A DNA stretch of 64,000 nucleotides. Origin: Chloroflexota bacterium (GTDB lineage Bacteria; Chloroflexota; Limnocylindria; Limnocylindrales; CSP1-4). Shown here piece by piece: positions 6,544-24,889 of this stretch. The translations under genes and the position numbers were made by a program. Numbering within the stretch: position 1 is the first letter of the stretch; each line of letters begins with the position of its first letter. The DNA is taken from the NCBI GenBank assembly GCA_021802585.1, contig JAJZRQ010000003.1, positions 2,048-66,047 on the forward strand. Direction: 5' to 3'. The notes below the pieces were generated by a model. It searched no databases, was not told the DNA's origin, and worked only from the letters and a program-made list of their open reading frames with translations.

Positions 6544-7346
6544 GCGGCCGCCGGTTCGGCCGCCTCGTCCTCGGCCTGGTCGCGGCGGTCGCGGCCGTCG
6601 CCTTCGGCGTCGCGCTCGGCCTCGGCGTCATCCGGTCGGGCGTCCTCCAGGCAGGTCTCGGGCCGGGACCGACGACGTCGCCGTCGCCGACCCCTGCCCT
6701 CACCGCTCCCGCCGGGAGCCCGGGACCGATCGGCGGCACGCCGTCGCCGAAGCCGCCGGCCGTCGCCCTCGAGATGCCAGCGGGCTCGAACTGCCTCGCC
6801 TGCCACACGACCGCCGACGGCGGCGTCGGGAACGTCCCGATCCCACCGATCGGGCACCCCCTCGAGGGCTGGACGGCGTGCCTCTCCTGCCACGCCAGCG
6901 ACCGGCTCGTGCAGACGGCGCCCGGCCACGTGGGGATCCACGCCGACCAGTGCCTCCTCTGCCACACGGCGACGACCCCGGCGGCGGAGTCCCGGCCGCA
7001 CTCGACCCACCGGAACGTGGCGTGCCTCTCCTGCCACGGCTCGAAGGCGCCGCTCCCGGCGAGCATGCAGAACCGCTCCGAGAGCACCTGCTGGCTCTGC
7101 CACCAGGGGTCGTCGCAGGAGGCCCCGCTCTACCTCCACCCGACGCCCGCCGACGGCCAGTGCCTCACGTGCCACGTCGCCGGCAAGGTCGGGGCGCTCC
7201 CCCGCGACCACGCGGACCGGACGAACGACATGTGCACCGCCTGCCACGCGCCGGCGACGACGACCGCGGTGAAGGCGCCACACGACCTCGCGTCGCGCGA
7301 GGGGATGTGCACGTTCTGCCACGGGGAGTCGAGCGGGCGCCAGTAG
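6540..7346 (+). CDS. Membrane-anchored octaheme c-type cytochrome
   Basis: Eight CxxCH motifs (CLACH, CLSCH, CLLCH, CLSCH, CWLCH, CLTCH, CTACH, CTFCH). N-terminal TM anchor FGRLVLGLVAAVAAVAFGVALGLGV. The GTG start overlaps the upstream stop (GTGA at 6540-6543). Confidence 0.85.
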   Translation: MSGRRFGRLVLGLVAAVAAVAFGVALGLGVIRSGVLQAGLGPGPTTSPSPTPALTAPAGSPGPIGGTPSPKPPAVALEMPAGSNCLACHTTADGGVGNVPIPPIGHPLEGWTACLSCHASDRLVQTAPGHVGIHADQCLLCHTATTPAAESRPHSTHRNVACLSCHGSKAPLPASMQNRSESTCWLCHQGSSQEAPLYLHPTPADGQCLTCHVAGKVGALPRDHADRTNDMCTACHAPATTTAVKAPHDLASREGMCTFCHGESSGRQ

Positions 7347-7541
7347 GACGGCGGACCCGGCGCCGGGCACGGGACCGGCACGCCCTCGGGCGTCGACGAG
7401 GGCCCCACGTCCCTCGCGCCGTGGGCCACACGGATCGCGCAACGCGACCGATGGCCCTACGCCCACCCCACCCCCGTCGGCGGATAGTGGCACGAGCGTC
7501 CCGGCGCGGCATCGGCGCGCGATGCACGACGGTGAGGTGAC

Positions 7542-8246
7542 GTGAGCACGAGCGGGAGCATCCCGGGGAGCGGACGGCAGCTCGGCGTCCTCCTCGCGAT
7601 CTTCGACTTCCCCATGCTCAACGTCGGGCTCCGCGAGGTGATCGACGCCGAGCCGGACATGCGCGTGCTCGGCGAGGCCTCGAGCCGCGAGGCGATGCGC
7701 GAGGAGGTCCTCGCGTCGGGCGCCGACGTCGTCGTCACCGAGTGCCTCCCGTACGACCACTCCGGCTGCACCTCGTTTCAGATGATCGAGGCGATCCGCG
7801 CGGCGAAGCCGGGGATCCGGATCCTCGCCGTCGAGTGCCGCTGCTCGAGCGAGCAGTTCTCCCTGGCGATCAAGGCCGGCGCCGACGGCTTCCTCACCCG
7901 CGAGGCCCAGGTGTCGGACTTCGTGACCGCGATCCGCTCGATCAGCCGCGGGCAGACGTACGTGAGCCCCTCGATCGTGACCCGGATGGTCAACACGTAC
8001 GTCCTGAAGACGCCCGGCGGCACGCTCGAGGACCCGTACGAGACCCTGAGCGAGCGCGAGCGCGAGGTCATGCTCCTCGCCGCGGTCGGCCACACGAACC
8101 GGGAGATCGCCCGGACGCTCCACCTCGCCGAGCAGACCGTCCACAACTACCGGGCCAACGTCATGGAGAAGCTCGGCTTCCACGACCGGGTCGAGCTCCT
8201 CAAGTACGCGATCCGCCGCGGCCTCATCGACGTGGCGGACCTGTAG
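7542..8246 (+). CDS. LuxR/NarL-family regulator, paralog of 2672-3403 with the same atypical Cys-bearing receiver
   Basis: It aligns by eye along its full length with the 2672-3403 product. It conserves FDF, TECLPYDHSGC, AVECRC and LTR, plus the LuxR HTH LSEREREVMLLAAVGHTNREIARTLHLAEQTVHNYRANVMEKLG. Confidence 0.85.
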   Translation: MSTSGSIPGSGRQLGVLLAIFDFPMLNVGLREVIDAEPDMRVLGEASSREAMREEVLASGADVVVTECLPYDHSGCTSFQMIEAIRAAKPGIRILAVECRCSSEQFSLAIKAGADGFLTREAQVSDFVTAIRSISRGQTYVSPSIVTRMVNTYVLKTPGGTLEDPYETLSEREREVMLLAAVGHTNREIARTLHLAEQTVHNYRANVMEKLGFHDRVELLKYAIRRGLIDVADL

Positions 8247-8279
8247 GGGGACGCAGGCCGCCACGCGTCCCCCTTCTTC
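8246..8279. terminator. Bidirectional intrinsic-terminator-like hairpin between convergent genes
   Basis: GGGGGACGC-aggccgccac-GCGTCCCCC followed by TTCTTC. It lies directly after the LuxR stop and before the convergent MFS stop. Confidence 0.6.
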
Positions 8280-8286
8280 AGGACAT

Positions 8287-9660
8287 TCAGACGGGCGTCG
8301 TGCCTCCCTCGTCCGGCGCCGGGGGGACCCGGCCGCCGAGCCACCAGAGGCCGGCCGCGATCCCGGCGCACGTCGCGGCCGTGGCCAGCCACAGGGTCGC
8401 TCCCGGGGCGACGTCGAGGACGAGGCCGCCGGCGACCGGCCCGATCGCCGAGCCGAGGCCCATGGCCGCCCCGAGGTAGCCCTGGTAGCGCCCCCGGAGC
8501 GCGGGCGGCGACAGCTCGGAGACGAACGACGTCTCGACGGGGAAGACGAACATCTCGCCGAGCGTGGCGAGGACGACCGTGCCGGCGAGCGCGGCGATCG
8601 CGAGGTCGGTCCCCGGGACGATCCCGATCACGAGGTACCCGAGCCCGTACCAGGCCATGCCCACGGCCATGAACCGCGGCCGGGACCGCCGCTCGGCGAG
8701 CGACGCCACGCGGAGCTGGAAGACGAAGATGAGGATCCCGTTGAGGGCGAAGAGGAGGCCCCAGGTCGCGGTCGAGACGTCGAGGCGGGCGTGGGCGTGG
8801 ATCGGGAGGGTGACGACCCACTGGAACGACGCGGCGTGGACCGCCACCGCGAGGAGGAGGAAGAGGGCGAGGATCCGTCGCGGGCCCAGGGGCCGGGCGC
8901 CGCCACGGACCGCCGCCCCGGCCGGGGGCGACGAGGCCGGCGGCGCGGCGGGGAGCGCCGGCGCCCCCTCCCCGGCGATCCCGGGGCCGCCCTCCCCGGC
9001 CTGGCCCGCCACATCGGCCGGGCCTGGCACGCCGGCCGCGGGGTGGATCCCCGGCCGCGTCTCGCGGAGGCCGACGACGAGGATCACCGCGTAGCCGGCG
9101 ATGATCACGCCGGCGGTCACGAACAGGACCCCGTACCCGAGGTTCGAGAGCCCGGCGCCGACCGACGGGCCCGCGATCCAGCCGACGCTCGAGGCCATCG
9201 CCAGGAGGCCGTACGCGCGCGGGCGCCGCTCGACCGGGACGACGTCGGCGACGGCGGCCCGCGCTGCCGGGACGAACGGCGGGTCGACGAGGCCGAGGAG
9301 GAGGGTGAGGGCGGCGACCCAGGCCAGGTCCCGGACGAGGCCCATCGCGGCGACGGTCGCGGCGGTCAGGATGATCGAGACGACCATGACCGGCTTGCGC
9401 CCGACCCGGTCGGCGAGCCAGCCGCCAACGGCGTTCGAGACGATCGAGACGACCGCGTAGAGCCCGACGACGGCGCCGGCGGCGAGGGCGGTCGCGCCGA
9501 GCTCGGCCGTCAGGTAGATCGTGAGGAACGGGAAGACGAGGCTGAACCCGAAGCTCGCGACGAGGTCGCCTGCGGCGAGGACGAAAATCGCGCGGTCGAA
9601 CTCGCGCCGCAGCTCGCGGAGCCTCCTGGTGGGCGCGAGGCGCTCACGGAGCACGGTCAC
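8287..9660 (-). CDS. MFS transporter
   Basis: 457 aa, 12-TM-like profile with the MFS loop motif GGWLADRVGRKPVM. An Ala/Pro-rich central loop is present. Confidence 0.8.
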   Translation of the reverse strand: MTVLRERLAPTRRLRELRREFDRAIFVLAAGDLVASFGFSLVFPFLTIYLTAELGATALAAGAVVGLYAVVSIVSNAVGGWLADRVGRKPVMVVSIILTAATVAAMGLVRDLAWVAALTLLLGLVDPPFVPAARAAVADVVPVERRPRAYGLLAMASSVGWIAGPSVGAGLSNLGYGVLFVTAGVIIAGYAVILVVGLRETRPGIHPAAGVPGPADVAGQAGEGGPGIAGEGAPALPAAPPASSPPAGAAVRGGARPLGPRRILALFLLLAVAVHAASFQWVVTLPIHAHARLDVSTATWGLLFALNGILIFVFQLRVASLAERRSRPRFMAVGMAWYGLGYLVIGIVPGTDLAIAALAGTVVLATLGEMFVFPVETSFVSELSPPALRGRYQGYLGAAMGLGSAIGPVAGGLVLDVAPGATLWLATAATCAGIAAGLWWLGGRVPPAPDEGGTTPV

Positions 9661-12736: not shown

Positions 12737-14125
12737 GTGGACGACTACGCCGGCGTCTCGTACTGGCTGGAGTCGAGCGGCGATCTCGCGCCGCGGCCGC
12801 CGCTCGACGGGTCGACGGCCTGCGACGTCGCGATCCTCGGCGCCGGGTACACGGGACTCTGGACCGCCTGGTACCTCCTCCGGCGGCAGCCCGGCCTGCG
12901 CGTCGTCGTCGCCGAGGCGGAGGTCGCGGGGTTCGGGGCCTCCGGCCGCAACGGGGCCTGGTGCGCGCCGGATCTCAACATCTCGATCGAGCGCCTCGCC
13001 CGGCTGCACGGGGAGGATGCCGCCCGCCGCCTCCAGCATGCGACGTACGACGCCGTCGACGAGGTCGGCCGGGCGGCGGCGGAGGCGGGGATCGACGCCG
13101 GCTTCCACAAGGGCGGCGAGCTCCTCGTGGCGCGCGGGCCGCACCATGTCCCGGCGATCGAGGCGGCGTACCGCGAATACGAGCGGTTCGGCTTCGGCGA
13201 CCGGTACGAGCTCCTCGACGGCGCCGGCGTCGCCGCGCGGGTCCGGATCGCCGGCGCCGTCGCCGGCCTCCGGACGCCGGACGCGGCGGTCATCCACCCC
13301 GGCCGCCTCGTGCGCGGGCTCGCGACCGCCGTCGAGCGGATGGGGGCCCGGATCGTCGAGCGGACCCCGGTCACCGGCATCCGAGCCGCCGCCGGAGGGG
13401 CGCCCGCCGCCCTGCTCACGCCGCGCGGCGAGATCCGGGCCCCGGTCGTCGTCCTCGCCGGGGAGGCGTACCTCGTCCGCCTCGCGCAGCTCCACCGGCA
13501 GCTCGTCCCGATGTACTCGCTCATCGTCCTCACCGAGCCACTCTCCGACGCGCGGTGGGCCGAGATCGGGTGGGCCGGCCGCGAGGTCGTCGCCTCGGCC
13601 CGCCTCTCGATCGACTACCTGTCGCGGACGGAGGACGGCCGGATCCTCTTCGGCGGGCGCGGGGCGCCGTACCGCCTCGGCTCGCCGATCCGCGACGCGT
13701 ACGACCGCCACGCGGCGACCCACGAGATGCTTCGCGGCTTCGCCCGGGCGTGGTTCCCGGCCCTTCGCGACGTCCGCTTCACCCACGCCTGGGGCGGGCC
13801 CCTCGGGATGCCGCGCGACTGGCACCCGACGATCGCGTTCGACCGGCGGTCCGGGATCGCGACCGCCCGCGGGTACGTCGGCCACGGCGTCTCGACGGCG
13901 AACCTCGCCGGCCGGACGCTCGCCGACCTCGTCGCGGGCGAGCGCACGCCGCTCACGGAGTTGCCGCTCGTCGGCCACCGGAGCCCCGACTGGGAGGTCG
14001 AGCCGCTCCGCTGGCTGGGGATCCGGTACGCGCAGGGAGCCCTCTCCCGGCTCGACCGCCGCGCAGAGGCGACTGGCCGGCCGCCGACGGGGCGGTCGCT
14101 CGCCGAGCGGCTCGCGAGCCACTGA
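12737..14125 (+). CDS. FAD-dependent oxidoreductase (DAO family)
   Basis: N-terminal dinucleotide fold CDVAILGAGYTGLWTAWYL followed by GASGRNGAW. 462 aa. Confidence 0.8.
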   Translation: MDDYAGVSYWLESSGDLAPRPPLDGSTACDVAILGAGYTGLWTAWYLLRRQPGLRVVVAEAEVAGFGASGRNGAWCAPDLNISIERLARLHGEDAARRLQHATYDAVDEVGRAAAEAGIDAGFHKGGELLVARGPHHVPAIEAAYREYERFGFGDRYELLDGAGVAARVRIAGAVAGLRTPDAAVIHPGRLVRGLATAVERMGARIVERTPVTGIRAAAGGAPAALLTPRGEIRAPVVVLAGEAYLVRLAQLHRQLVPMYSLIVLTEPLSDARWAEIGWAGREVVASARLSIDYLSRTEDGRILFGGRGAPYRLGSPIRDAYDRHAATHEMLRGFARAWFPALRDVRFTHAWGGPLGMPRDWHPTIAFDRRSGIATARGYVGHGVSTANLAGRTLADLVAGERTPLTELPLVGHRSPDWEVEPLRWLGIRYAQGALSRLDRRAEATGRPPTGRSLAERLASH

Positions 14126-14168
14126 CCCGGCGCCGGCGGGGGGTGCCCGCGCCGCGGGCCCTGGTGCC

Positions 14169-14250
14169 GCCCTGCGACGAGGCGGCGCGGCCCTGGTGCC
14201 GGCCACGGGGTGGCGCCCTGCGACGAGGCGGCGCGGCCCTGGTGCCGGCC
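14169..14250. repeat. 36-bp direct repeat (2 copies, 46-bp period) in a long intergenic region
   Basis: gccctgcgacgaggcggcgcggccctggtgccggcc occurs at 14169-14204 and 14215-14250. The core ggccctggtgccg occurs a third time just upstream (about 14157). Confidence 0.75.
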
Positions 14251-14764
14251 CACGGAGCAGGCGCGCGGTCGGCCCGGCTCCCCAATGCCGGTCCAGAGAT
14301 CATTCGTCATCGCCTGCCCGGCCGACGGGGATCCACCGCCGGGCAGATCCCCCGGTGGCCCTCCGTGTCGAGCTCGGTCCAGCTCGCGAGGGGGCCCGGG
14401 CGAGGGCGACGGTGGCCCCAACGGGGAGCGGACGGCCGCATCGTCCTGCGCAGTGATCCAGAGGGCCGCATCGGGGAGCGGGGACGGCCGCGCCACCGGG
14501 GGCGGGGAGCGGCCGCCGCGCTGCCGGGGCGGGGACGATGCCCGGCCCGCCGGCGACGCCATCACCGCGGCCCGGCTCCGCGGCCGGCGACGTCGTGGCG
14601 GGCGGCCTCGTTTGACGACTCCCCGCTCGTGGCCTACGCTCACCGCCCAAAGGCGATGGTGTCCGCCGAGACGCTCGACGTCTGAACAGCCCGATCGGGA
14701 TGATGGCCCCTGGACTGCTCGTGCAGGCCGGGGGCCATTGTGGTCTCCCGGGCCGGGAGATGGC

Positions 14765-15532
14765 ATGGACGACAGAAACACGACCGTCGCGACCGCGGCC
14801 GGGCCAGCGATCGGCGGCGAGCGCGCCGATCCGCGGCCCCGCCCCCCGGTCGAAGAGGTCGGCGATGTCGCCCTTGCCGACCTCTTCGCGGAGCCAGGCT
14901 GCCCGCTCTGCCGGCTCCGCGAGCGCTCGGCGCGTCGCTTCGTCGGGTCGTTCCTCTGGGAGAGCGTGACCGACGTCGACTTCCGCGAGCGCCTCGCCCG
15001 GGGGCGCGGGTTCTGCCCAGAGCACGGTGGGCTCGTCCTCGCGATCGACACCGCGGCGGAGGGGACACCCGTGGGCAGCGCGATCCTCCTCGAGTCGATC
15101 CTGCGGCTCCGCCTCGCCGACCTCGAGGACCGGGGCCGCCGGGCGCCGCGGCCGCGGCGCGGCCGACGCGCGGGGGATCCGGGGGCCGTGGATTGTCCCG
15201 TCTGCGAGCAGGTGGACGTGGCGGTCGCCGGCGCCTCGGCGCGCATCCTCGACCTCCTCCGTCTTCCCGCGTGGCGCGCGACGCTCGCCGCCGCCGAGCC
15301 GTGCATCCCCGACCTCGAGAGCCTCGACCGCCTCGCCTCCGCGCGCCGGACGGCGGCGTGGGCAGAGGTCGCCGCCGCCCAGCGCGCGCGGCTCGTCGCC
15401 GTCGCGGATCGGCTCGCCGGCCTCGTCGCGCACAGCGCCCACGACCGCCGGCACCTGCGGACGCGCTCCGAGGTCGCGGCGGTGGGCGAGGCCGCGGCGC
15501 TCCTCGGCTTCCGGGCGTCGACCGATGGCTGA
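14765..15532 (+). CDS. Cys-rich protein with CxxC...GFCxxH module(s), DUF6062-like, function unknown
   Basis: The translation has CPLC followed 37 residues later by GFCPEH. A second CPVC is followed by a degenerate EPCIPD. Composition is natural after the ATG at 14765, and the stop overlaps the next gene's ATG. Confidence 0.6.
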   Translation: MDDRNTTVATAAGPAIGGERADPRPRPPVEEVGDVALADLFAEPGCPLCRLRERSARRFVGSFLWESVTDVDFRERLARGRGFCPEHGGLVLAIDTAAEGTPVGSAILLESILRLRLADLEDRGRRAPRPRRGRRAGDPGAVDCPVCEQVDVAVAGASARILDLLRLPAWRATLAAAEPCIPDLESLDRLASARRTAAWAEVAAAQRARLVAVADRLAGLVAHSAHDRRHLRTRSEVAAVGEAAALLGFRASTDG

Positions 15533-16868
15533 CCCGACGAGCGGCACGGCGGCGGCGGTGGGCGTCGAGGCACGGGCGTCGACCGGCATGGCGACGGCGG
15601 CGGGCGTCGAGGCACGGGCGTCGAGCGGCACGTCGGCGGCAACCGGCGCGCGGTGGCTCAACCGGAACGTCGCCGCGATGGGAATCACGAGCCTCTTCTC
15701 AGACGCCAGTCACGAGACGGCGACGGCGGTCCTGCCGGGGTTCCTCGGGGTCCTCGGCCTCCCGCCCGTCGCCCTCGGCGTCATCGAGGGCGCCTCCGAC
15801 GCGCTGGCGAGCTTCGTGAAGCTCGGGTCCGGCTGGATCGGCGACCGGACCGCCAGCCGCTGGGGCATCGCCGTCGTCGGCTACACGCTCACCGGGATCA
15901 TGCCGCTCGGGCTCGCTCTCGCCGGCTCGTGGCCGGTCGTCCTCGGGGCGAAGCTCGTGGGGTGGCTCGGCCGGGGGATCCGGGGCCCCGTCCGCGACGC
16001 GATGCTCGCCGCGTCCGTCGCGCCGGAGGCGCGGGGCCGCGCGTTCGGATTCCACCGGGCCGGCGACACGATCGGCGCGGTGATCGGCCCGGCGCTCGGG
16101 GTCGCGGTCCTCGGGGCGTTCGCGGCGACGGCGACCGAGCCCCTCGCGGCGTTCCGCGCGGTCTTCCTCCTCGCGCTCATCCCCGGGATCCTCGCCGCGC
16201 TCACGTTCGCCGTCTTCGTCCGGGACCCGGCGACCGGCAGCCGCTCCACGGGCACGTTCCGGGCCGCCGTCGTCGGACTCCCCGCGCGGTTCCGGCGCTA
16301 CCTCGTCGCCGTCGGCCTGTTCGGGATCGGCGACTTCGCGCCGAGCCTTCTCATCCTCGCCGCGACGACGCTCCTCGCGCCCTCGCTCGGGATCGTCGCC
16401 GCCGGCGCGACCGCCGGGCTCCTCTACGTCCTCCGCAACGCGGTCTACGCCCTCGGCGCGTACCCTGTCGGCGCCCTGAGCGACCGGACGGGGCGCCCGG
16501 TCCTCCTCCTCGCCGTCGGCTACGCGCTCGGCGCCGCCGTCGCCGCGGGCACCGCGCTCGCCTTCGCGGCCGCCATCGACGACCCAGCGTACCTCGCCCT
16601 CCTCTTCGTCGGCTCGGGGCTCCTCGCGGCGGTCGAGGACACCCTCGAGGCCGTCTCGACGGCCGAGCTCGCCGGCGACACGGCGCGGGCGACCGCCTTC
16701 GGCCTCCTCGGCACGGTGAACGGCGTCGGTGACCTCGTCGCGAGCGCGGGGGTGGGCCTCGTCTGGACGGTCCTCTCGCCGTTCGCCGCGTTCGGCGCGG
16801 CGACGGTCGCGATGGGGGCGGGCGCGGCCCTCGTCGCCGGCATGGCCCTCCGGGGAGCCGCGCGATGA
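15525..16868 (+). CDS. MFS transporter
   Basis: NRNVAAMGITSLFSDASHE... followed by a 12-TM-like profile. The start is uncertain (ATG at 15525 overlapping the upstream stop, or ATG at 15588). The stop overlaps the MoxR ATG (ATGA). Confidence 0.7.
   Translation: MADPTSGTAAAVGVEARASTGMATAAGVEARASSGTSAATGARWLNRNVAAMGITSLFSDASHETATAVLPGFLGVLGLPPVALGVIEGASDALASFVKLGSGWIGDRTASRWGIAVVGYTLTGIMPLGLALAGSWPVVLGAKLVGWLGRGIRGPVRDAMLAASVAPEARGRAFGFHRAGDTIGAVIGPALGVAVLGAFAATATEPLAAFRAVFLLALIPGILAALTFAVFVRDPATGSRSTGTFRAAVVGLPARFRRYLVAVGLFGIGDFAPSLLILAATTLLAPSLGIVAAGATAGLLYVLRNAVYALGAYPVGALSDRTGRPVLLLAVGYALGAAVAAGTALAFAAAIDDPAYLALLFVGSGLLAAVEDTLEAVSTAELAGDTARATAFGLLGTVNGVGDLVASAGVGLVWTVLSPFAAFGAATVAMGAGAALVAGMALRGAAR
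15560..15624. repeat. 23-bp direct repeat, 42-bp period, at the 5' end of the MFS gene
   Basis: gggcgtcgaggcacgggcgtcga occurs at 15560-15582 and 15602-15624. If translated, it encodes GVEARAS twice. Confidence 0.7.
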
Positions 16869-17890
16869 GCGACGAGACGGCGCTCCTGCCGGCGGCCGAG
16901 CCGCAGGTGGGAGCCGAGCCGCGGGCGACGAGCGCGTCGCGGGAGGGGGTCGCGGGCGAGCGGTTCTGGACGGGCATCCGGGCGGCGGTCGCGAACGCGG
17001 TCGTCGGGGCCGAGCCGGCCCTCCGGCTCCTCGCCGTGGCGCTTCTCGCCGACGGGCACGCCCTCGTGGAGGACGTCCCCGGGACCGGCAAGACGACCCT
17101 CGCCCGGGCGTTCGCCCGCGCCCTCGGGCTCGGCTTCGGGCGGGTGCAGGGGACGCCGGACCTCCTCCCCGGCGACGTCACGGGCAGCAGCGTCTACGAG
17201 GGGGGCACGTTCCGCTTCGTGCCCGGGCCGATCTTCACGAACGTCCTCCTCGTCGACGAGGTGAACCGGGCGACGCCCCGCACGCAGGCGGCGCTCCTCG
17301 AGGCGATGCAGGAGCGCCAGGTGTCGGTCGACGGGGAGACCCGCCGGCTGCCGGAGCCGTTCCTCGTGCTGGCCACCCAGAACCCGATCGAGCTCGAGGG
17401 GACGTTCGCCCTTCCCGAGGCCCAGCTCGACCGCTTCCTCGTCCGGATCGAGCTCGGCTACCCGTCCGAGGACGCGGAGCTCGAGATCGCCGCCCGCTAC
17501 CAGGCCACGGACGAGCCGCTCGAGCGGGTCGAGGCAGCCTTCGCCCCGCCCGACCTCCGCGCGCTTCGCGAGGCCGCGCGGACAGCCGTCGTCGGCGACG
17601 AGGTGGCCCGCTACCTCGTGGCCCTCGTCCGGCGGACGCGCGGGCACCCCGACCTGCGCCTCGGGGCGAGCCCCCGGGCGAGCGTCGCCCTCTACCGGGC
17701 GAGCCAGGCGTGGGCGACCCTCGACGGCCGCCGGTTCGTCCTCCCCGACGACGTCGCGGCCGTCGCCCCGGCCGTCCTCTCCCACCGCATCCTCCTCGAC
17801 ATCGACCGGGAGCTCCGGGGCGCGACGACAGCGGCGGTGGTCGCCGACGTCCTCGCGGACGTGCCCGTCCCGATCGTCCGGGCACGATGA
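16865..17890 (+). CDS. MoxR-family AAA+ ATPase
   Basis: Walker A EDVPGTGKTTLA, Walker B LLVDEVNRATPRTQAALLEAM, and LVLATQNPIELEGTFALPEAQLDRF are hallmark MoxR motifs. Confidence 0.9.
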   Translation: MSDETALLPAAEPQVGAEPRATSASREGVAGERFWTGIRAAVANAVVGAEPALRLLAVALLADGHALVEDVPGTGKTTLARAFARALGLGFGRVQGTPDLLPGDVTGSSVYEGGTFRFVPGPIFTNVLLVDEVNRATPRTQAALLEAMQERQVSVDGETRRLPEPFLVLATQNPIELEGTFALPEAQLDRFLVRIELGYPSEDAELEIAARYQATDEPLERVEAAFAPPDLRALREAARTAVVGDEVARYLVALVRRTRGHPDLRLGASPRASVALYRASQAWATLDGRRFVLPDDVAAVAPAVLSHRILLDIDRELRGATTAAVVADVLADVPVPIVRAR

Positions 17891-17921
17891 AGGCGGCGAT
17901 CGCCGGCAGGGCGGTCGGGCG

Positions 17922-19154
17922 GTGAGCCCGAGCGTCGCTGTCGGGCTCGTCGTGATCGCCGCCGGCGCGCTGGGCGGCGTGCCGGGGGTCGCGATCCTCG
18001 GCGCCCTCGCGGTCACCATTTCCTGGCTCTCCGAACTGTGGAGTCGCCACGGGCTCGCCCGGGTCACGTACACGCGCCGCCTGACCCGCGACCGCGCGGT
18101 GTGGGGCGACCGGGTCGCCCTCGACGTCACGGTCCACAACGCGAAGCTCCTCCCGCTCGGCTGGCTCCAGGCCGACGACTTCGCCAGCGAGTCGCTCGTC
18201 GTCGAGGAGCGGCCGCTCCTGCCGAGCGACCGGCCGGGCCTCGGGATCCTCCGGAACGTCTGGGCCCTCGGCCCGTTCGAGCGGGTGGACCGGCGGGTCC
18301 ACGTCGTCGCCGACCACCGCGGCCGCTACGAGCTCTCGCGGGTCGCGCTCAGCGTCGCGGACCTCTTCGGGCGCGCCGTCGCGACCGCGGAGTCGACGCA
18401 GCCGGCCCACCTCATCGTCCGGCCGCGGACCGTCCCGGTCCGGTCGGAGGCCGCGAGCGTCACCCTCGAGGGGGCGCGCCGCGCCCGACGCGGGCTCCAC
18501 GAGGATCCGGCGCTCTTCGCCGGCGTCCGCCCGTTCCAGCCGGGCGACTCCCGGCGCCGGGTCCACGCCCGCGCGTCCGCCCGCGTCGGGCGGCCCGTGA
18601 GCAAGCGGTTCGAGCCCCCGATCGCGCGCGACGTCGTCGTCGCCCTCGACGTGCAGACCCACGAGGGACCGCACTGGCTCCTCGCGTACGACGAGGACGT
18701 CATGGAGTCGCTCGCCGTCACCGCCGCCTCGCTCGCGCGGCGGCTCCTCGCCGACGGGGCCGCCTGCGGGCTCGTCGCGAACGGCTGGACATGGTCGCCG
18801 GCCCACACCGCCGTCGTCGCTCCCAGGGCGGGGCAGGAGCAGCTGACGCGGATCGCCGACATGCTCGGGCGCCTCAGCTCGATCCCCTCGCTCCCGTTCG
18901 AGGACGTCCTCGCCGGCCTGCCCGCGCGCGTCCCCGGCGGGGCACTCGTGTGGATCGTGTCGTCGCGCGACGTCGCGGCGCTCGGCGGGGTGCTCCGGCG
19001 GCTCCGCGCGGCCGGGTTCGAGCTCCGGCTCGTGGCGCTCGGGCCGCACGCGGCCGCCCACGCCGCCCGGGCGCGGCGGCTCGGGATCGAGGCGGTCGTC
19101 GCCCTCCTGCGACCCGACTGGAGGTCGTGCGATGCGGTCGCCCTCGCGAGCTGA
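17922..19154 (+). CDS. DUF58 (vWA-like) protein, MoxR partner
   Basis: The motif GLHEDPALFAGVRPFQPGDSRRRVHARASAR is the DUF58 signature (e..eF.g.R.Y.pGD..r.IdW..sAR). N-terminal TM helices are present, and the gene sits directly after MoxR. Confidence 0.8.
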   Translation: MSPSVAVGLVVIAAGALGGVPGVAILGALAVTISWLSELWSRHGLARVTYTRRLTRDRAVWGDRVALDVTVHNAKLLPLGWLQADDFASESLVVEERPLLPSDRPGLGILRNVWALGPFERVDRRVHVVADHRGRYELSRVALSVADLFGRAVATAESTQPAHLIVRPRTVPVRSEAASVTLEGARRARRGLHEDPALFAGVRPFQPGDSRRRVHARASARVGRPVSKRFEPPIARDVVVALDVQTHEGPHWLLAYDEDVMESLAVTAASLARRLLADGAACGLVANGWTWSPAHTAVVAPRAGQEQLTRIADMLGRLSSIPSLPFEDVLAGLPARVPGGALVWIVSSRDVAALGGVLRRLRAAGFELRLVALGPHAAAHAARARRLGIEAVVALLRPDWRSCDAVALAS

Positions 19155-20484
19155 CCTCGGCGACCGGCTCGTCGGCCTCCTGCCCCCCGGCGCCGTGGCC
19201 GTCGCCGAGGGCGCCTGGATCGCCGTCGTCCACGCGGCCGTGACGGTCGGACTCCTCCACGGCGCAGCGGGGCCCGGCGTCGTCGCCTTCGCCGCCGCGG
19301 CCGGGCTCGGGATCGTCGCCGCGCGGCGGGCCGCGCCCGCCACGCCGGCCGGCGCGGCCTGGCGGGGAGCCGCCATCGCGGCGGCCGGTCTCGCGGGCTG
19401 GGCGGCCGATCCCGCCGTCCAGGGGTCCCTGGCGGCCGGAGCGCTGCCCGCGTCCACCGCCGCCGGGGCCACGGGACTCCTCCTCGCGCTCGCCGCCTGG
19501 CGCGGGACCCGCCACCGGGAGGCCACGGCCGACGACCTCGCCGTCGGGACGCTCCTCGCGCGAGGCGTGCCGGGCCTCGCGGTGCCGTGGATCATCGGGA
19601 GCGCATCGCCGGCGACCCGCGGGGCGTTCGGTGCGGAGGCGCTGCCGGCGACGCTCCTGTTCGTTGCCGGCGGGCTCGCGGCGATCGGCCTCACCCGGCT
19701 CGACGCCGTGAGCCGCGCGGCGGGCGTGGACTGGCGCGGACGGCGAGCATGGCCGGCGCTCATCGGCGGGGTCGTCGTCGTCGTCCTCGCGCTCGGCGTC
19801 CCCGCGGCGCTCCTCCTCGACGTCCCGCTCGCGACGCTCGTCCGGTTCGTCACCGATCCGCTGGCCCACGCCGGGACGGCCGTGTCGGACGCCCTTCGAG
19901 GGGTGATCGGGAGCGGAGGGTCGGCCGCCCCGCCGGCGCCGGCACCGGGCGTGCCGGGCCCGCCGGCCGCCGGAGGTGGCGCGGCCGTCACGGGCATCCT
20001 CGTCCTCCTCCTGGCCGCCGTTGGCGGCGTCGCCGCGGCGGCGGTCGCCCTCCTCGTTCGCGACCGCGAGTCGCGCGGCCCGCGCGTCCCGCCGCCGGCT
20101 CCGGAGCCGGCGGAGTCGCGGCGGCTCGTCCTGCCCGCGCTCCGCTTCCGCGCCCCGCGGCCGCGCCTGCCGCGGTTCGCCCGGCTCGCCGCCGAACGCC
20201 CGCGGACCGCCGCCGACGCGTATGTCCTGCTCGTCGAGGACCGCGCGACCGACCCGGCGACCGCGCGGCGCGCGGGGGAGTCGCCCTCCGCCCACGCCCG
20301 GCGCCTCCGGGCGGCGGGACGCGGCGCGCTCGGCCTGGACCTCCTCGCCGCGGACTACGCGCTCGAGCGGTACGCAGGCGTCCGGCTCACGGCGAGGGAG
20401 ACGCGGCGCGCCGCCGCCCGCTGGCGCGCGCTCCGCCGGCGGTGGCCGGTCGGTCGGCCGGCCGGCCGACGGGTGGCTCCGTGA
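19132..20484 (+). CDS. Polytopic membrane protein with C-terminal DUF4129-like domain
   Basis: Several Ala/Gly-rich TM segments are followed by a C-terminal segment ...ESPSAHARRLRAAG...LDLLAADYALERYAG..., as in DUF4129 proteins that follow MoxR/DUF58. It overlaps both neighbours. Confidence 0.6.
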   Translation: MRSPSRADLGDRLVGLLPPGAVAVAEGAWIAVVHAAVTVGLLHGAAGPGVVAFAAAAGLGIVAARRAAPATPAGAAWRGAAIAAAGLAGWAADPAVQGSLAAGALPASTAAGATGLLLALAAWRGTRHREATADDLAVGTLLARGVPGLAVPWIIGSASPATRGAFGAEALPATLLFVAGGLAAIGLTRLDAVSRAAGVDWRGRRAWPALIGGVVVVVLALGVPAALLLDVPLATLVRFVTDPLAHAGTAVSDALRGVIGSGGSAAPPAPAPGVPGPPAAGGGAAVTGILVLLLAAVGGVAAAAVALLVRDRESRGPRVPPPAPEPAESRRLVLPALRFRAPRPRLPRFARLAAERPRTAADAYVLLVEDRATDPATARRAGESPSAHARRLRAAGRGALGLDLLAADYALERYAGVRLTARETRRAAARWRALRRRWPVGRPAGRRVAP

Positions 20485-21998
20485 CCGAGGCCGGGCGCGC
20501 GGCCGCGCCGGCCGGCGTCGACGCGCCGTCGCCGGCGGACCCGCCGGCGCCGGTCGCACGCTGCGTCGTCTGTTCGTTCGTCGCCGACGCGGTCGACCGG
20601 CGGCTCTTCTTCCTCTTCGCCGAGTCGATCGGCGACGGCTGGTTCCTCGAGGCGATGCGCGCCGGCGGCTTCTGCCTCCGGCACGCCCGCCGGGTGTTCC
20701 GCGCGCCGGACGTCGTGGGGATGACGATCCCGATCCGGGAGCTCCTTCGCGGCTGGCGCGCCCGACGGGCCGGGGCGGCGCGCCCGGCCGGCCCGACGCC
20801 GTGGCTCGGAGGGCCGTGCCCGCTCTGCGTCACGGCCGCGTGGGCCGAGGCGCACGCCCTGTGGATCCTCGACGAGCCGGTCGTCCGCAAGGCCGCGGGC
20901 ACCCTCGGGGCCGATGGGCCGGTCTGCCTCCCCCACCTCGACCGGCGCCTCGACGCGCGGGACCCCTGGCGGATCGCCGTCGTCGCCGGCGCGATCCGGG
21001 CCCGGATCGGAGCGGCCGGGGAGGCCGGCCCCGATGCCGCGCTCGGGGCGGTCGCCGGCGACGACGTCGACCGGGTCATCCGGGGCGCTCCCGCGCCCGA
21101 GGGCGGGGACGGCGAGGCGGCGCGTCCTGGGCCGGCTGCCCCGGCAACCCTGACCGGCGCGCCAGCTGCGCCGGCGCGCAACGATGCCCGCGCCCGTGAG
21201 CGGGGCCCCGACGCCCTCGGCCGGGCGCTCGACGCGGGAGCCTGCCCGGCCTGCGCGGCGAGCGCGGCCGCGGCCCGCTGGCCGATCGCCTTCCTCGCCT
21301 CGGCCGCGCCGGGGGAGGACGTCCGCGACCTCGACCGTCTCTGCGTGCGGCACCTCCACGACGCGGCCGCGACGTCGCCCGCGGCAGCCGCCCGTGCCGT
21401 CGCCGGGTCGCTCCGCGGCTGGTGGTCCGCCATCGAGGTGCTCCCCGCTGTCGCGGACCTCCCTCCCCGGTCGCTCGCGGCGCGGGCGCGATGGCTCGCC
21501 CCGCGGGCCCTGCCGCCCGGCCGACGCCGCCCGGCGCTCGGGACGCTCGCGGAGGGGCTCGCCCGGCCGGACCGCGCGCCCCGGCGGGCGATCGCCGCGG
21601 CGCGCCTCCGCCGCTCGCGCGCGTGCGTTGCGTGCGAGGCGGCCACGACGGCCGCGGATCGCTCCCTCGCGCTCCTCGGGGCGCTCCTCGCCGGGCGCCC
21701 ATGGCGCGACCGCTTCGAACGCTCCGACGGCCTCTGCCTCCGCCACGTCGAGATCGCGCTCGGCGTCCTCGACCCATCCGCGGCGGCGGTCGTCGGCGCC
21801 GTCGCCGACGCGCGGGCGGCGCGCCTCGAGTGGGCCCTCGACGAGTCCGTCCGCCGCAGCTCGTGGTCGGTCCGCTACGAGCCGGAGGCGCCCGAGTCGG
21901 GAGCGTGGGTCGAGGCCTTCGTCTTCGTCCACGGGGAGGGCGTCCGGCGGCGGGACCTCCTCGGCCCCGACGGCGAGGGGCGGGAGCCGGCGGCGTGA
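20481..21998 (+). CDS. 505-aa protein made of four CxxC...CxxH modules (DUF6062-like repeats), unknown function
   Basis: Modules: CVVC...GGFCLRH, CPLC...GPVCLPH, CPAC...RLCVRH, CVAC...DGLCLRH. The GTG start overlaps the upstream stop (GTGA at 20481-20484) and the stop overlaps the next start (GTGA at 21995-21998). Confidence 0.65.
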   Translation: MTEAGRAAAPAGVDAPSPADPPAPVARCVVCSFVADAVDRRLFFLFAESIGDGWFLEAMRAGGFCLRHARRVFRAPDVVGMTIPIRELLRGWRARRAGAARPAGPTPWLGGPCPLCVTAAWAEAHALWILDEPVVRKAAGTLGADGPVCLPHLDRRLDARDPWRIAVVAGAIRARIGAAGEAGPDAALGAVAGDDVDRVIRGAPAPEGGDGEAARPGPAAPATLTGAPAAPARNDARARERGPDALGRALDAGACPACAASAAAARWPIAFLASAAPGEDVRDLDRLCVRHLHDAAATSPAAAARAVAGSLRGWWSAIEVLPAVADLPPRSLAARARWLAPRALPPGRRRPALGTLAEGLARPDRAPRRAIAAARLRRSRACVACEAATTAADRSLALLGALLAGRPWRDRFERSDGLCLRHVEIALGVLDPSAAAVVGAVADARAARLEWALDESVRRSSWSVRYEPEAPESGAWVEAFVFVHGEGVRRRDLLGPDGEGREPAA

Positions 21999-23329
21999 CC
22001 GCAGCGACCGACGCGCCCCTCCTCCTCGAGGTCGAGGACGCCGCCGGGCCGGGCGTCGACTTCGAGCGGGTCGGGCACGAGCTCGTCGGGCGGCGCGTCC
22101 GCCGGGGCGGCCTGTGGCTCGGGTTCGACCGCGGGGCCGTCCTCGAGACCGACGACGGGGCGGGAACGCGCCTCGCCGCGGTCGTCGCCCTGCCGGCCTC
22201 GACGCACGCGGGCTGCCGGCTCGAGGCGGAGCCGGCGGGCGGATGGCTCGCCGACGGCCGCCTCGTCGTCGTCGCGCGGCTCGCCGGCGCCCCCTCGCCC
22301 CTCCCCGCGCTCGCGCGCCTCGCCGCGGGCGTCCCCGAGGACGCGGCGTGGCTCGACGCGGCCGCCGTCGGCCGCGAGGTCCAGCACGCCCGGCAGCGAT
22401 TCCGCGAGCGCCGCGCCCATGCCCGGATCCTCGGCGGGCGGGCCTGGCACGGCGCCGGGCACGGCGCCGGGGCGAGCGTCGAGGCGAGCCGCTTCACGAC
22501 GCCGCACTCGGCCGCCGAGTACCGCCTCGACGGTCTCCCGCAGCGCTTCCTCCGGGGTCTTGCCGGCCTCCTCGACGACGACGAGCGGCTCCTCTACGCG
22601 ATCGAACGGCCGGAGGACCGGGACGCCGGGATCGTCGCCCGCACGTTCCGCCGGGAGGACCGGCGGGCGGCGCTCCTCGCCCTCACCGACCGCCAGCTCC
22701 TGTGGGTCGTCGACCATGCCGACCCGGACCGCTTCCTCGGCGATTGGGGCGTCGACGTCGAGGTCGTCCCCGTCGAGCGGATCACCGCGGTCGACGTGCT
22801 CCCCGGCCCGGGGTCGGGCATCGCGGTCGCGACCGACGGCGGGCGGCGCGCCTACCGGCTGCCGGCCGAGCTCGGCGCGGAGATCGCGGTCCTCGCGCGC
22901 CTCATCCGGCGGTTCGTCGCCGCCGCGGACGAGTCGCCGCTCCGCCGCCTCTACGGCGTCCCGGCGGTCGAGCCGGAGGAGGGCCCGCTCGACGCGTTCG
23001 GCCAGGCGGCCGAGGCCCGCGCCGCCGTGGCGGCGGAGCGGCGGGCGGTGCCGGTCCTCGGCGCCTTCTACGACCCGCGCCGGCCGGGCGTCCGGGGCCC
23101 GTCCCTCGTCGTCCTCCGCGAGGACGCGGTCGCGCTGCGCTCCGCGGCCGCGGTCCGGAGCGTCCGGCTCGACGACGTGGCGGCCCTCGGGATCACGCTC
23201 TCGGCTCTTGTCGGGCGCCTCGTCGTCCGAGGGCGGACGGAATCGCTCGACCTCCGCTTCCCAGCGCCGCTCTCGACCGGCGCGGCGGCATGGGTCCGGT
23301 CGGCCCGGCGGGCGCTCGCGAACCGCTGA
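21995..23329 (+). CDS. 444-aa hypothetical protein, terminal gene of the MoxR operon
   Basis: The start is translationally coupled. Composition is natural (for example ERLLYAIERPEDRDAGIVARTFRREDRRAALLALTDRQLLWVVDHADPDRF and ITAVDVLPGPGSGIAVATDGGRRAYRLP), suggestive of repeated PH/GRAM-like beta-sandwich units. I saw no recognisable catalytic motif. Confidence 0.55.
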   Translation: MTAATDAPLLLEVEDAAGPGVDFERVGHELVGRRVRRGGLWLGFDRGAVLETDDGAGTRLAAVVALPASTHAGCRLEAEPAGGWLADGRLVVVARLAGAPSPLPALARLAAGVPEDAAWLDAAAVGREVQHARQRFRERRAHARILGGRAWHGAGHGAGASVEASRFTTPHSAAEYRLDGLPQRFLRGLAGLLDDDERLLYAIERPEDRDAGIVARTFRREDRRAALLALTDRQLLWVVDHADPDRFLGDWGVDVEVVPVERITAVDVLPGPGSGIAVATDGGRRAYRLPAELGAEIAVLARLIRRFVAAADESPLRRLYGVPAVEPEEGPLDAFGQAAEARAAVAAERRAVPVLGAFYDPRRPGVRGPSLVVLREDAVALRSAAAVRSVRLDDVAALGITLSALVGRLVVRGRTESLDLRFPAPLSTGAAAWVRSARRALANR

Positions 23330-23363: not shown

Positions 23364-23999
23364 TCACGACGCCTCGGCCTCCTCGCCGCGCCAGGCCTCG
23401 AGCGCCTCGCGGCCGATGAGGGCCGTCATCGCGAGGGCGGCGAGCGGATCCGCCCACCACGCTCCGACGAGGGCGTTCGCACCGATCCCGATGATGAGGA
23501 AGACGGAGAGCCAGAAGCAGGCGTCCGTCTGGAATGCGTCGGCGGCCATCGCCCGGCTGCCGAGGGCGACGCCGACCGCCCGCTTCGCGCGGGCGAGCCA
23601 GCGCATGACGGCGATCGAGGCGAGCCCGAGGGCGATCCCGACCGGGGACGGCTCCGGGCGCTCGCCGGCGGCGAGCGACGTCACGGAATCCCAGCCGATG
23701 TAGACGGCGAGGAGGACGAGCGAGGCGGCGACGAGTCGCCGGGCCCGCTGCTCGACCTGCTCGACCCGCTCCTCGTCCTCCGCCCGCCGCTCGGCGTGGA
23801 GCCGCCAGATCATCACCGAGCCCGACGCCGACTCGACGAAGCTGTCGATGCCGAAGCCGAGGAGCGCGACGGAGCCGGCGGCGATGCCGGCGGTGACCGC
23901 GACGAGGCCCTCGACGACGTTCCAGCCGACCGTCAGGTACTCGAGCCGCAGCGCCCGGCGGAGGAGACCGCGGCGCTCGCCCGTCGTCGTCGCGGTCAC
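23364..23999 (-). CDS. Short cation-efflux (CDF-related) membrane protein lacking the cytoplasmic C-terminal domain
   Basis: LEYLTVGWNVVEGLVAVTAGIAAGSVALLGFGIDSFVESASG and MAADAFQTDAC resemble TM2/TM5 metal-site helices of cation diffusion facilitators. Only 211 aa. The GTG start overlaps the czcD-like stop (GTGA). Confidence 0.6.
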   Translation of the reverse strand: MTATTTGERRGLLRRALRLEYLTVGWNVVEGLVAVTAGIAAGSVALLGFGIDSFVESASGSVMIWRLHAERRAEDEERVEQVEQRARRLVAASLVLLAVYIGWDSVTSLAAGERPEPSPVGIALGLASIAVMRWLARAKRAVGVALGSRAMAADAFQTDACFWLSVFLIIGIGANALVGAWWADPLAALAMTALIGREALEAWRGEEAEAS

Positions 24000-24889
24000 G
24001 CGTGGTGCCGCTCCTCGAGGCGGCGCCGGTCGGCCGCCTCGAGCTGGAACGTGGAGTGCTCGATGTCGAAGTCGCCGGCGAGGCAGCCGCAGAGCTCGTC
24101 GAGGACGGCCGGGGCCTCCGCTCCTTCGGCAAGCACGACGTGGGCCGAGACGACGGGCACGCCCGAGGTGATCGTCCAGGCGTGGAGGTCGTGGACGTCG
24201 ACGACGCCGTCGAGCCCGCGGATGTGGGCCCGGACCTCGTCGAGGTTCATCCCCTTCGGCGTCGCCTCGAGGAGGACGTCGGTCGCCTCGCGGAGGAGGC
24301 CCCACGTGCGCGGCAGGATGAGGAGCCCGATCGCCGCCGAGGCGACGGCGTCGGCCGCCGTCCAGCCCGTCGTGGCGATGACGACGGCGGCCACGATCAC
24401 GGCCGCCGAGCCGGCGAGGTCGCCGAGCACCTCGAGGTACGCCCCCCGCAGGTTGAGGCTCTCGCCCTGGGCCCGGCGCAGGAGGACGAGCGAGGCCGCG
24501 TTCGCGACGAGGCCGAGGACGGCGACCGCGAGCATGAGACCGGACTCGACCTCCGGCGGCTCCGCGAGGCGACGCCAGGCCTCGACGAGGACGAGGACGG
24601 CGACGCCGAAGAGGAGGACCGCGTTCGCCACGGCGGCGAGGATCTCGACGCGGAGGAAGCCGTACGTCCGGCCGTTCGACGGCGGCCGGCGGGCGAACCA
24701 GATCGCGCCGAGGGCGAGGGCGAGGCCGACGACGTCCGTGAGCATGTGGCCGGCGTCCGCGAGGAGGGCGAGGCTGTTCGCCGCGATCCCGCCGACGACC
24801 TCGACGGCGAGGACCGTCGCGGTGACCGCGAAGACGGCGGCGAGGCGCCGCCGGTGGGCGTCCGCCGCGCTGACGGGGACGTGGGGCAC
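23996..24889 (-). CDS. czcD: Cation diffusion facilitator, CzcD/ZitB-like metal efflux protein
   Basis: IAANSLALLADAGHMLTDV, LEVLGDLAGS and the C-terminal domain DVHDLHAWTITSG...HSTFQLE are typical CDF motifs. Confidence 0.85.
   Translation of the reverse strand: MPHVPVSAADAHRRRLAAVFAVTATVLAVEVVGGIAANSLALLADAGHMLTDVVGLALALGAIWFARRPPSNGRTYGFLRVEILAAVANAVLLFGVAVLVLVEAWRRLAEPPEVESGLMLAVAVLGLVANAASLVLLRRAQGESLNLRGAYLEVLGDLAGSAAVIVAAVVIATTGWTAADAVASAAIGLLILPRTWGLLREATDVLLEATPKGMNLDEVRAHIRGLDGVVDVHDLHAWTITSGVPVVSAHVVLAEGAEAPAVLDELCGCLAGDFDIEHSTFQLEAADRRRLEERHHA

Follow-up and report, generated by a model that had tools for sequence, protein, structure and literature searches.

A probable fluoride-response operon with MoxR-DUF58-DUF4129, DUF6062 and pyrophosphatase-like genes in a Chloroflexota bacterium

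In a stretch of 64,000 nucleotides (nt) of a Chloroflexota bacterium (contig JAJZRQ010000003.1; this whole stretch is hereafter called the window), a string of seven co-directional, mostly overlapping genes occupies 14765-23329 of the + strand and stands behind an RNA element that carries the core of the fluoride riboswitch. The genes encode, in this order, a short DUF6062 protein, an MFS transporter, a MoxR-class ATPase, a DUF58-type protein, a DUF4129-like membrane protein, a double DUF6062 protein of 505 amino acids (aa) and a 444-aa protein with a pyrophosphatase-like fold. We consider it likely that this string is a fluoride-response operon under the control of the fluoride riboswitch, and it is best read as a member of the fluoride regulon with new cargo. 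The operon would, in the best reading, be a lineage-specific assembly of shuffled fluoride-regulon modules: relatives of every module recur behind riboswitches that pass the Rfam threshold, alone or recombined, together with crcB, Na+/H+ antiporters, DUF190-CBS, NUDIX, enolase and pairs of MutS_V proteins. The riboswitch had gone unnoticed in an earlier interpretation of this DNA, made from the letters alone (hereafter the sequence-only reading). The elements of the string are as follows (GC3, GC content at the third codon position).

14643..14719 (+), fluoride riboswitch aptamer (crcB motif, RF01734), Limnocylindria-type, with an extra hairpin that separates P1 from the GAAC linker
14702..14764 (+), putative expression platform, from ViennaRNA folds
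14765..15532 (+), short DUF6062 protein, 255 aa; modules CPLC...CPEH and CPVC...C..D; GC3 0.91
15525..16868 (+), MFS transporter, 447 aa; overlaps both neighbours; MFS_1 75.6 bits
16865..17890 (+), MoxR-class AAA+ ATPase, 341 aa; AAA_3 193.6 bits, AAA_lid_2 75.5 bits
17922..19154 (+), DUF58-type protein, 410 aa; N-terminal membrane anchor; degenerate metal ion-dependent adhesion site (MIDAS; D-x-Q-T)
19132..20484 (+), polytopic membrane protein, 450 aa; C-terminal DUF4129-like domain
20481..21998 (+), double DUF6062 protein, 505 aa; four predicted Cys3His sites and C-terminal SSWSVRYEP motif
21995..23329 (+), 444-aa protein; predicted pyrophosphatase-like N-terminal barrel, long helix and two PH-like domains

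The riboswitch and the gene string

The window aptamer aligned over the full Rfam model (positions 1-64) with 30 bits by cmscan (E 3e-6 in a search of 801 nt), and after comparison of the whole 64-kb window with 4227 Rfam families RF01734 was the sole match below E 0.05 (E 2.4e-4). The core is kept as GGCGAUGGUGUCCGCC / AAC / UGAUGGCCCCU in the cmscan alignment, with an intact P1 carrying the GAUGG.GU loop, the AAC linker, P3 and the UGAUG..CCU tail. A pseudoknot joining the P1 loop to the 3' tail, which the Rfam model does not score, was predicted by eye with five of its six pairs, and the remaining pair is restored in two related loci, L035 and L082. Near-identical copies at the same position pass the gathering score in L005 (41.2 bits), L031 (40.1), L012 (38.3), L034 (36.9) and L001 (34.6). 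The extra hairpin (14668-14684 in the window; alignment columns 29-65), which measures about 14-40 nt across the Limnocylindria-type aptamers, was 100% paired in 29 distinct sequences, with AU/GC compensatory changes in 12 of them.

The distance from the aptamer end to the first start codon (ATG) is 46 nt. In ViennaRNA folds, the aptamer 3' tail GAUGGCCCCUGG pairs alternatively with CCGGGGGCCAUU to form a strong hairpin at 14702-14739, and a second hairpin, UCUCCCGG/CCGGGAGA, contains the Shine-Dalgarno-like GGGAGA at 14755-14760. The layout of tail and complementary strand was found also in L001, L005, L012, L031, L027, L021 and L016, and the riboswitch of L066 is accompanied by a classical U-tract terminator. 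Terminators overlap the crcB motif, and fluoride 'ON' switches are usually built with such an alternative stem (PMC2864571). We infer that the alternative hairpin is the expression platform of the switch: the binding of fluoride would stabilise the pseudoknot, block the alternative hairpin and switch the operon on.

The genes behind this RNA were called by position-specific GC at the third position, using an open reading frame (ORF) scorer defined as GC3 minus GC2, because long ORFs fill all six frames of the region around the string at 76-82% GC. The host genome has about 77% GC, and its kin are Chloroflexota (Ca. Limnocylindrales) genomes. The third-position signal followed the + strand signature throughout, with frame switches exactly at the gene borders of the sequence-only reading, and the scorer kept exactly seven + strand genes with GC3 of 0.91-0.97. 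The possibility that 20481-23329 is non-coding is contradicted by this signature and by the homologs of its two products, more than 150 for the 444-aa protein and 1638 representatives for the double DUF6062 protein. The coupling described in the sequence-only reading was likewise present on inspection of the junctions. The short DUF6062 gene, called there a shorter CxxC...CxxH paralog, and the MFS gene upstream of MoxR are start/stop-coupled, through ATGGCTGA at 15525-15532 and ATGA at 16865-16868 (MFS/MoxR); the MoxR-DUF58-DUF4129 trio is followed by two coupled genes, through GTGA at 20481-20484 (DUF4129/505-aa) and GTGA at 21995-21998 (505-aa/444-aa). A gap of 31 nt lies ahead of the DUF58 gene, and the DUF58 and DUF4129 genes overlap by 23 nt. 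The scans of the seven proteins against NCBIfam and PADLOC gave generic AAA and MFS matches only, with no sign of a defence system, and this candidate was rejected.

Fluoride riboswitches and gene order in related loci

About 160 related loci, chosen on proteins and not on RNA, were searched for the riboswitch, and the downstream strings were inferred from tblastn intervals with gaps of 400 nt or less (700 nt for the first gene). In these loci riboswitches head strings with DUF6062, MFS, MoxR-DUF58-DUF4129, the 444-aa protein, crcB, Na+/H+ antiporters, enolase and MutS-like ATPase pairs, and the presence of CrcB and of DUF190+CBS in riboswitch strings was confirmed by Pfam. Rfam identified 40 threshold-passing fluoride riboswitches in 20 loci with a total length of 136 kb. 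A covariance model of our own, built from nine riboswitch instances, gave 1.3 riboswitches per 10 kb; its E-values are rough, and every strong match submitted to Rfam's model was confirmed. At least 120 metagenome contigs of GC 0.39-0.79 were retrieved with a degenerate DNA pattern based on the C-terminal motif of DUF6062, and those listed were dereplicated at 90% nucleotide identity into 92 groups. Our model detected riboswitches in 45 of these DUF6062 groups, and for the 444-aa protein it did so in 24 of 30 groups. The first gene behind the riboswitch was DUF6062 in 23 non-redundant cases, a Na+/H+ antiporter in 17, the 444-aa gene in 11 and the MutS_V pair in 11. In 14 loci a riboswitch is followed by the 444-aa gene and no other, and MoxR/DUF58/DUF4129 genes are found in 11 non-redundant riboswitch strings.

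The order of modules varies among these strings. The window has DUF6062-MFS-MoxR-DUF58-DUF4129-DUF6062-444aa behind its riboswitch, L012 and L034 have Na/H-CrcB-DUF190CBS-DUF6062-MoxR-DUF58-DUF4129-doubleDUF6062-444aa, and the string of L001 and L005 begins with NUDIX-MFS-MoxR. The riboswitch lies directly ahead of MoxR in L031 (MoxR-DUF58-DUF4129-444aa), precedes DUF6062-MoxR-DUF58 in L082, and in L066 (GC 0.49; 54.5 bits) is followed by doubleDUF6062-MFS, facing a MutS_V pair. The L061/L138 group (GC 0.48) carries MFS-DUF6062-x143-DUF6062-doubleDUF6062, then a riboswitch, then DUF4129-DUF7269-MoxR-DUF58-x185-MutS_V-MutS_V-AAA_16-His_Phos_1, and the L138 riboswitch ahead of this DUF4129 gene scores 49 bits. 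The genes of L061 (7301-14862) and L138 (1572-10832) form one long, putatively fluoride-controlled string that includes two small proteins, x143 of 143 aa and the hydrophobic x185 of 185 aa. Molybdenum cofactor genes (FeS, FmdE, MoCF_biosynth, MoaA) were observed in L066 at 4697-8571, just upstream of riboswitch-doubleDUF6062-MFS, and genes like the ModABC molybdate transporter, judged by eye, follow the 444-aa gene in L012 (11370-14061) and L014.

Paired proteins of about 500 aa that contain only MutS domain V adjoin 444-aa or DUF6062 genes, often behind a riboswitch of their own (L001, 1046-4119; L066, 11811-14227; L138, 2918-5976; and many others). Their resemblance to the KamC reactivase ATPase is weak (36-71 bits; cutoff 300). 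Among the genes downstream of crcB-motif RNAs are mutS, ion transporters and formate hydrogen lyase (PMC2864571), and the MutS_V pairs behind riboswitches fit this old, unexplained 'mutS' association of the motif. The genes commonly associated with the riboswitch are exporters, Na+/H+ antiporters, pyrophosphatase, HAD phosphoesterases and enolase (PMC11139923), and the known fluoride regulon as a whole comprises the Fluc/CrcB and CLC-F exporters, antiporters, pyrophosphatase, HAD, enolase, formate hydrogen lyase and MutS-like proteins (PMC11139923; PMC2864571; PMC7266159). Our literature search found no paper linking the fluoride riboswitch to MoxR, DUF58 or an MFS protein of this kind, although these families may have been listed earlier, and none on fluoride riboswitches in Chloroflexota. 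The statement of the sequence-only reading that the string matches no described system holds in part: the organising principle, a fluoride riboswitch regulon, is known, but these gene families are tied to it in no paper found.

A genome scan with the 444-aa family gave 33 loci, in which genes were called by GC3 and then clustered, and 35 loci including the window were classified. All the 33 loci are from Chloroflexota metagenome-assembled genomes, mostly titled Candidatus Limnocylindrales or 'uncultured Chloroflexia', except one titled Terriglobia. This last locus (L007, CAWEJA010000008.1) carries a 444-aa gene of 52% identity and a riboswitch of Limnocylindria type, and may be mis-binned or mislabelled. 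In the closest relative, L001, the proteins are 53-83% identical to those of the window genes. The order MoxR-DUF58-DUF4129-doubleDUF6062-444aa was found in 7 of the 35 loci (window, L001, L005, L012, L014, L026 and L034), with differing flanks, so that the extended gene order of the sequence-only reading is indeed kept among kin; five carry MoxR-DUF58-DUF4129-444aa without the Cys-rich gene, and two carry DUF4129-MFS-Na/H-doubleDUF6062-444aa. One locus is truncated and one has the trio 6.5 kb away on the other strand; in the remaining 19, none of the other genes of the string lies within 10 kb of the 444-aa gene. Wherever the double DUF6062 gene occurs in these loci it directly precedes the 444-aa gene (10/10). 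The two-gene extension is conserved but optional, and the 444-aa gene is its more widespread part. Synteny alone was rejected as the cause of the gene order, since the flanks differ widely between loci while modules recur, and a fixed seven-gene system was rejected since modules occur apart and in other combinations. The proposal that the seven genes make up a defined unit must be given up on the same counts, with the 444-aa gene alone behind a riboswitch in 14 loci and the trio joined to the 444-aa gene without the Cys-rich gene in five.

This variation bears on whether the products cooperate at all. In a fluoride island of independent modules, the genes would share a riboswitch and a transcript through clustering and shuffling, and their products would form neither a complex nor a pathway. 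We give this possibility substantial weight, somewhat short of an even chance, and on the point of physical cooperation such a mosaic is at least as likely as cooperation. It accords with the occurrence of the 444-aa gene alone, of DUF6062 alone or with MFS (many cases) and of the MutS_V pair alone, each behind riboswitches, with the different gene orders of the window, L012, L001, L029, L082 and L061/L138, and with the five loci that have no double DUF6062 gene between DUF4129 and the 444-aa gene. It is opposed by the finding of DUF6062 beside the MoxR trio in three unrelated orders and 9 of the 92 groups, far above chance for one or two MoxR genes per genome, and by the 4-nt start/stop overlaps in the window and L001, which suggest matched expression levels.

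The neighbours of DUF6062 were counted in the 23 dereplicated groups whose contigs reach 9 kb or more: 12 have the MFS of window type nearby, 10 have the MutS_V pair and 5 have MoxR/DUF58/DUF4129. The gene orders with MoxR/DUF58/DUF4129 number at least three, in organisms of GC 0.48-0.77, and this recurrence in several orders makes a functional link of the Cys-rich proteins with the MoxR system plausible. The neighbourhood statistics suggested by the sequence-only reading thus gave a divided result: the recurrent adjacency is there, but most DUF6062 genes have no MoxR neighbour, and four contexts of short DUF6062 genes elsewhere contained none. Homologs of the window MFS (30-48% identity) adjoin DUF6062 genes in 26 of the 92 groups.

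The sequence-only reading had itself proposed that the MoxR-DUF58-DUF4129 chaperone matures or remodels a zinc-ribbon-rich client or adaptor, here the DUF6062 protein, irrespective of fluoride. We regard this model as unlikely. It draws on the repeated adjacency of DUF6062 and MoxR/DUF58/DUF4129, and the four invariant Cys3His sites would suit a protein in need of assisted metal loading, for which NorQD and CoxD are precedents. It leaves aside the riboswitch and the company of crcB, Na+/H+ antiporters and enolase; it also agrees poorly with the many DUF6062 genes away from MoxR, with the five loci in which the trio and the 444-aa gene occur without the double DUF6062 gene, and with the degeneration of the DUF58 MIDAS, the usual site of client or metal contact in von Willebrand factor A (VWA) partners.

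The proteins of the string

The MoxR protein matched AAA_3 and AAA_lid_2 above the cutoffs, with the P-loop PGTGKT, read from the translation, and the Walker B motif VLLVDE. The 410-aa protein matched DUF58 with 21.8 bits, just below the cutoff of 23.4, and the equivalent gene of L138 with 55.3 bits; the place after MoxR and the hydrophobic N-terminal anchor fit the DUF58 family. The MIDAS motif D-x-S-x-S is replaced in this subfamily by a conserved L-D-[VI]-Q-T (window protein and 13 orthologs). The 450-aa protein contains transmembrane-like segments and has itself no Pfam match at E of 1 or less, and nine of 12 orthologs (38-59% identity) match DUF4129, the best with E 3.7e-9. It has no match to Transglut_core and no cysteine in its sequence, and therefore no transglutaminase core; it is not a transglutaminase.

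The trio is common in bacteria, and we know of no job assigned to it. It shares the order of MoxR, anchored DUF58 and polytopic DUF4129-like membrane protein with the MoxR-DUF58-transglutaminase/DUF4129 clusters, for example the PFNA cluster of Bifidobacterium and the Bat operon type of Bacteroides. Unlike these clusters, the window has neither a transglutaminase core nor VWA or TPR proteins of the BatA-E type, and adds DUF6062 and the pyrophosphatase-like protein under a fluoride riboswitch. The pairs CbbQ/CbbO and NorQ/NorD, compared by Pfam, likewise consist of a MoxR-class ATPase and a VWA-type partner, a resemblance of working principle only; such MoxR-VWA activases are the model for ATP-driven inhibitor release or metal insertion. 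In the window, by contrast, the DUF58 MIDAS is degenerate (D-x-Q-T) and the system is membrane-anchored.

The short paralog reached the Pfam DUF6062 cutoff with 27.7 bits (cutoff 27) and has 117 homologs in our search, some of them fused to CYTH or a P-loop kinase. In many homologs the CYTH domain stands at the N-terminus (389 aa) or the kinase, of the AAA_18/AAA_33 kind, at the C-terminus (414-433 aa). The check by Pfam of the last two proteins that the sequence-only reading had suggested was partly informative: the 505-aa protein matched DUF6062 with 23.4 bits, under the cutoff, and the 444-aa protein nothing. Unlike the short paralog, the 505-aa protein has an extra pair of Cys3His modules. 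All of 23 members of the double-protein family match DUF6062 (best E 7.8e-15). A word-indexed search found seven close homologs of the 505-aa protein, and in an exhaustive profile search the 1638 cluster representatives were collected at E of 1e-3 or less, 90 of them at 1e-30 or less, many full length with 430-540 aa.

The description of the 505-aa protein as four CxxC...CxxH modules was upheld. The predicted Cys3His sites are C28/C31/C65/H68, C113/C116/C149/H152, C255/C258/C288/H291 and C382/C385/C419/H422, and across 23 diverse relatives these 16 ligands of four CxxC-x(33-36)-CxxH modules show little or no variation, the C-terminal motif WELxExxRKxSWSVRYEPxGPE being equally conserved. By sequence, the protein looks like a DUF6062 protein with a second module pair inserted before the C-terminal motif. 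Its AlphaFold model (pLDDT 83.6, pTM 0.82) is all-helical, with each CxxC and CxxH at the N-terminus of a helix, and had no significant match in the Protein Data Bank (PDB) by Foldseek (best E 0.11, beta-catenin repeats, TM score 0.09). The relaxed-threshold Pfam search of 23 double DUF6062 proteins gave zinc-finger and RING matches at noise level only and no Fer2_BFD, and because of this the idea of a Bfd-like [2Fe-2S] module stands on the spacing of the ligands. No paper that mentions DUF6062 was found in the literature search.

For the 444-aa protein, of which more than 150 homologs have 43-67% identity, the sequence-only reading had proposed PH/GRAM-like repeats; two putative PH-like domains are seen in the AlphaFold model, but an N-terminal pyrophosphatase-like domain had been overlooked. 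The model (pLDDT 84.2) consists of an N-terminal barrel (about 9-140), a long helix and two domains of seven strands plus a C-terminal helix (about 199-305 and 356-443), which are PH-like by the order of secondary structure. Every one of the top 50 matches of the N-terminal part by Foldseek against PDB belongs to the family I pyrophosphatases (best E 1.3e-6, probability 1.0, TM score about 0.55 by target length). Pfam gave no match for 30 members of the family, and a PDB sequence search with the family profile gave no real match. The signature of family I pyrophosphatases is D-x-D-x-x-D and the catalytic loop D97/D102/K104 (E. coli numbering). In comparison with the family I enzyme Rv3628 of M. 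tuberculosis (PDB 4z70, against which the Rv3628 sequence used in hhalign was checked), the fold of residues of about 9-140 is alike; there is no sequence-level match, neither the Asp triad nor the loop is kept in the hhalign alignment, and two putative PH-like domains are fused to it. On the AlphaFold model the protein is thus called pyrophosphatase-like and not a pyrophosphatase, because the fold matches but the catalytic aspartates are not kept in a weak hhalign register.

Around the string, a gap of 640 nt lies ahead of the first gene, with an FAD-dependent oxidoreductase gene upstream at 12737-14125 and a 42-nt direct repeat (period 46 nt, 98% identity) at 14163-14250 within the gap. Two overlapping Cation_efflux (CDF) genes, 23364-23999 (-) and 23996-24889 (-), converge on the end of the operon, and the second has a zinc-transporter dimerisation domain.

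Weighing of the fluoride reading, mechanism and significance

Several points weigh against the reading of the string as an operon controlled by a fluoride riboswitch. A single G.A mismatch in P3 keeps the window aptamer below the RF01734 gathering score of 34 bits, and a scan at that threshold misses it; the predicted pseudoknot contains a U.C mismatch, common to most Limnocylindria copies. The window contains none of the tracked crcB, enolase and Na+/H+ antiporter families. In about half of the DUF6062 groups a riboswitch is missing, many of their contigs being short, and short DUF6062 genes elsewhere (L039-L043) have neither riboswitch nor MoxR. The joining of the seven genes in one operon is suggested only by overlaps and co-direction, and the scan for promoter and terminator consensus sequences gave nothing useful at this GC content. 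The roles considered for MoxR, DUF6062 and MFS would follow from analogy, and in the alignment of the 444-aa protein to Rv3628 by hhalign, itself weak (probability 6.6%), A/T/A stand at the three Asp positions of DxDxxD and the second catalytic loop is deleted.

The low score and the two mismatches would fit an aptamer that is a decayed relic, with the operon constitutive or otherwise regulated and the fluoride link confined to relatives. We judge this quite improbable: apart from the mismatches the aptamer is intact, as are its extra hairpin and the alternative hairpin, and all of these agree with the threshold-passing copies, the U.C mismatch is common to such copies, and the whole-window E-value is low (2.4e-4).

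The fluoride-response operon also agrees with fluoride riboswitch (RF01734) regulons such as the crcB/eriC-F operons, which Weinberg 2010 and Baker 2012 are said to have placed under this riboswitch. The aptamer core in the 5' untranslated region and the alternative stem over the 3' tail are alike, and crcB, Na+/H+ antiporters, DUF190-CBS, NUDIX, enolase and MutS-like genes stand behind the same RNA in related loci. Unlike these regulons, the window operon has no known fluoride exporter, its aptamer bears an extra covarying hairpin, and the cargo consists of MoxR-DUF58-DUF4129, two DUF6062 proteins, an MFS protein and a pyrophosphatase-like protein.

Fluoride poisons Mg2+-dependent phosphoryl-transfer enzymes through metal-fluoride complexes, pyrophosphatase being a classic target, and MoxR-VWA pairs elsewhere serve as activases or metal-insertion chaperones. 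The products of the operon would mitigate the damage by fluoride. The MFS protein may move an ion or metabolite across the membrane, and the membrane-anchored AAA+ machine of MoxR, DUF58 and DUF4129 may, by analogy to CbbQO and NorQD, remodel or re-metalate proteins poisoned by metal-fluoride complexes; the Cys3His DUF6062 proteins would be its substrates or would bind metal as its partners. The pyrophosphatase-like protein might bind or hydrolyse pyrophosphate in a fluoride-insensitive manner, or recognise a poisoned enzyme. Its fold fits the phosphoesterase theme of the fluoride regulon, seen here in the window protein itself and in NUDIX, His_Phos and HAD-like proteins (the last by eye, with no Pfam match) of the relatives. 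We hold the specific remodelling mechanism, in which ATP would drive the rescue of proteins that are poisoned by fluoride or have lost their metal and DUF6062 would be the metal-binding partner, to be a speculative one, drawn from analogy and improbable at present. The fuller proposal, in which MoxR-DUF58-DUF4129, DUF6062 and the pyrophosphatase-like protein form a membrane-anchored, ATP-driven 'reactivase' that strips metal-fluoride dead-end complexes from Mg2+-dependent phosphoryl-transfer enzymes such as pyrophosphatase and enolase, or re-metalates them, is rather unlikely.

The repeated occurrence of the trio, DUF6062 and the pyrophosphatase-like protein behind a ligand-specific RNA switch gives a concrete test condition, fluoride stress, and three uncharacterised protein families gain, together with the MoxR-DUF58-DUF4129 trio, a testable physiological setting. 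Besides exporters and replacement enzymes, the fluoride regulon would take in remodellers driven by ATP, MoxR here and MutS_V pairs next door, and the presence of both hints at the repair of fluoride-poisoned proteins and not export alone. If the reactivase proposal were true, it would provide the first physiological role for the MoxR-DUF58-DUF4129 trio.

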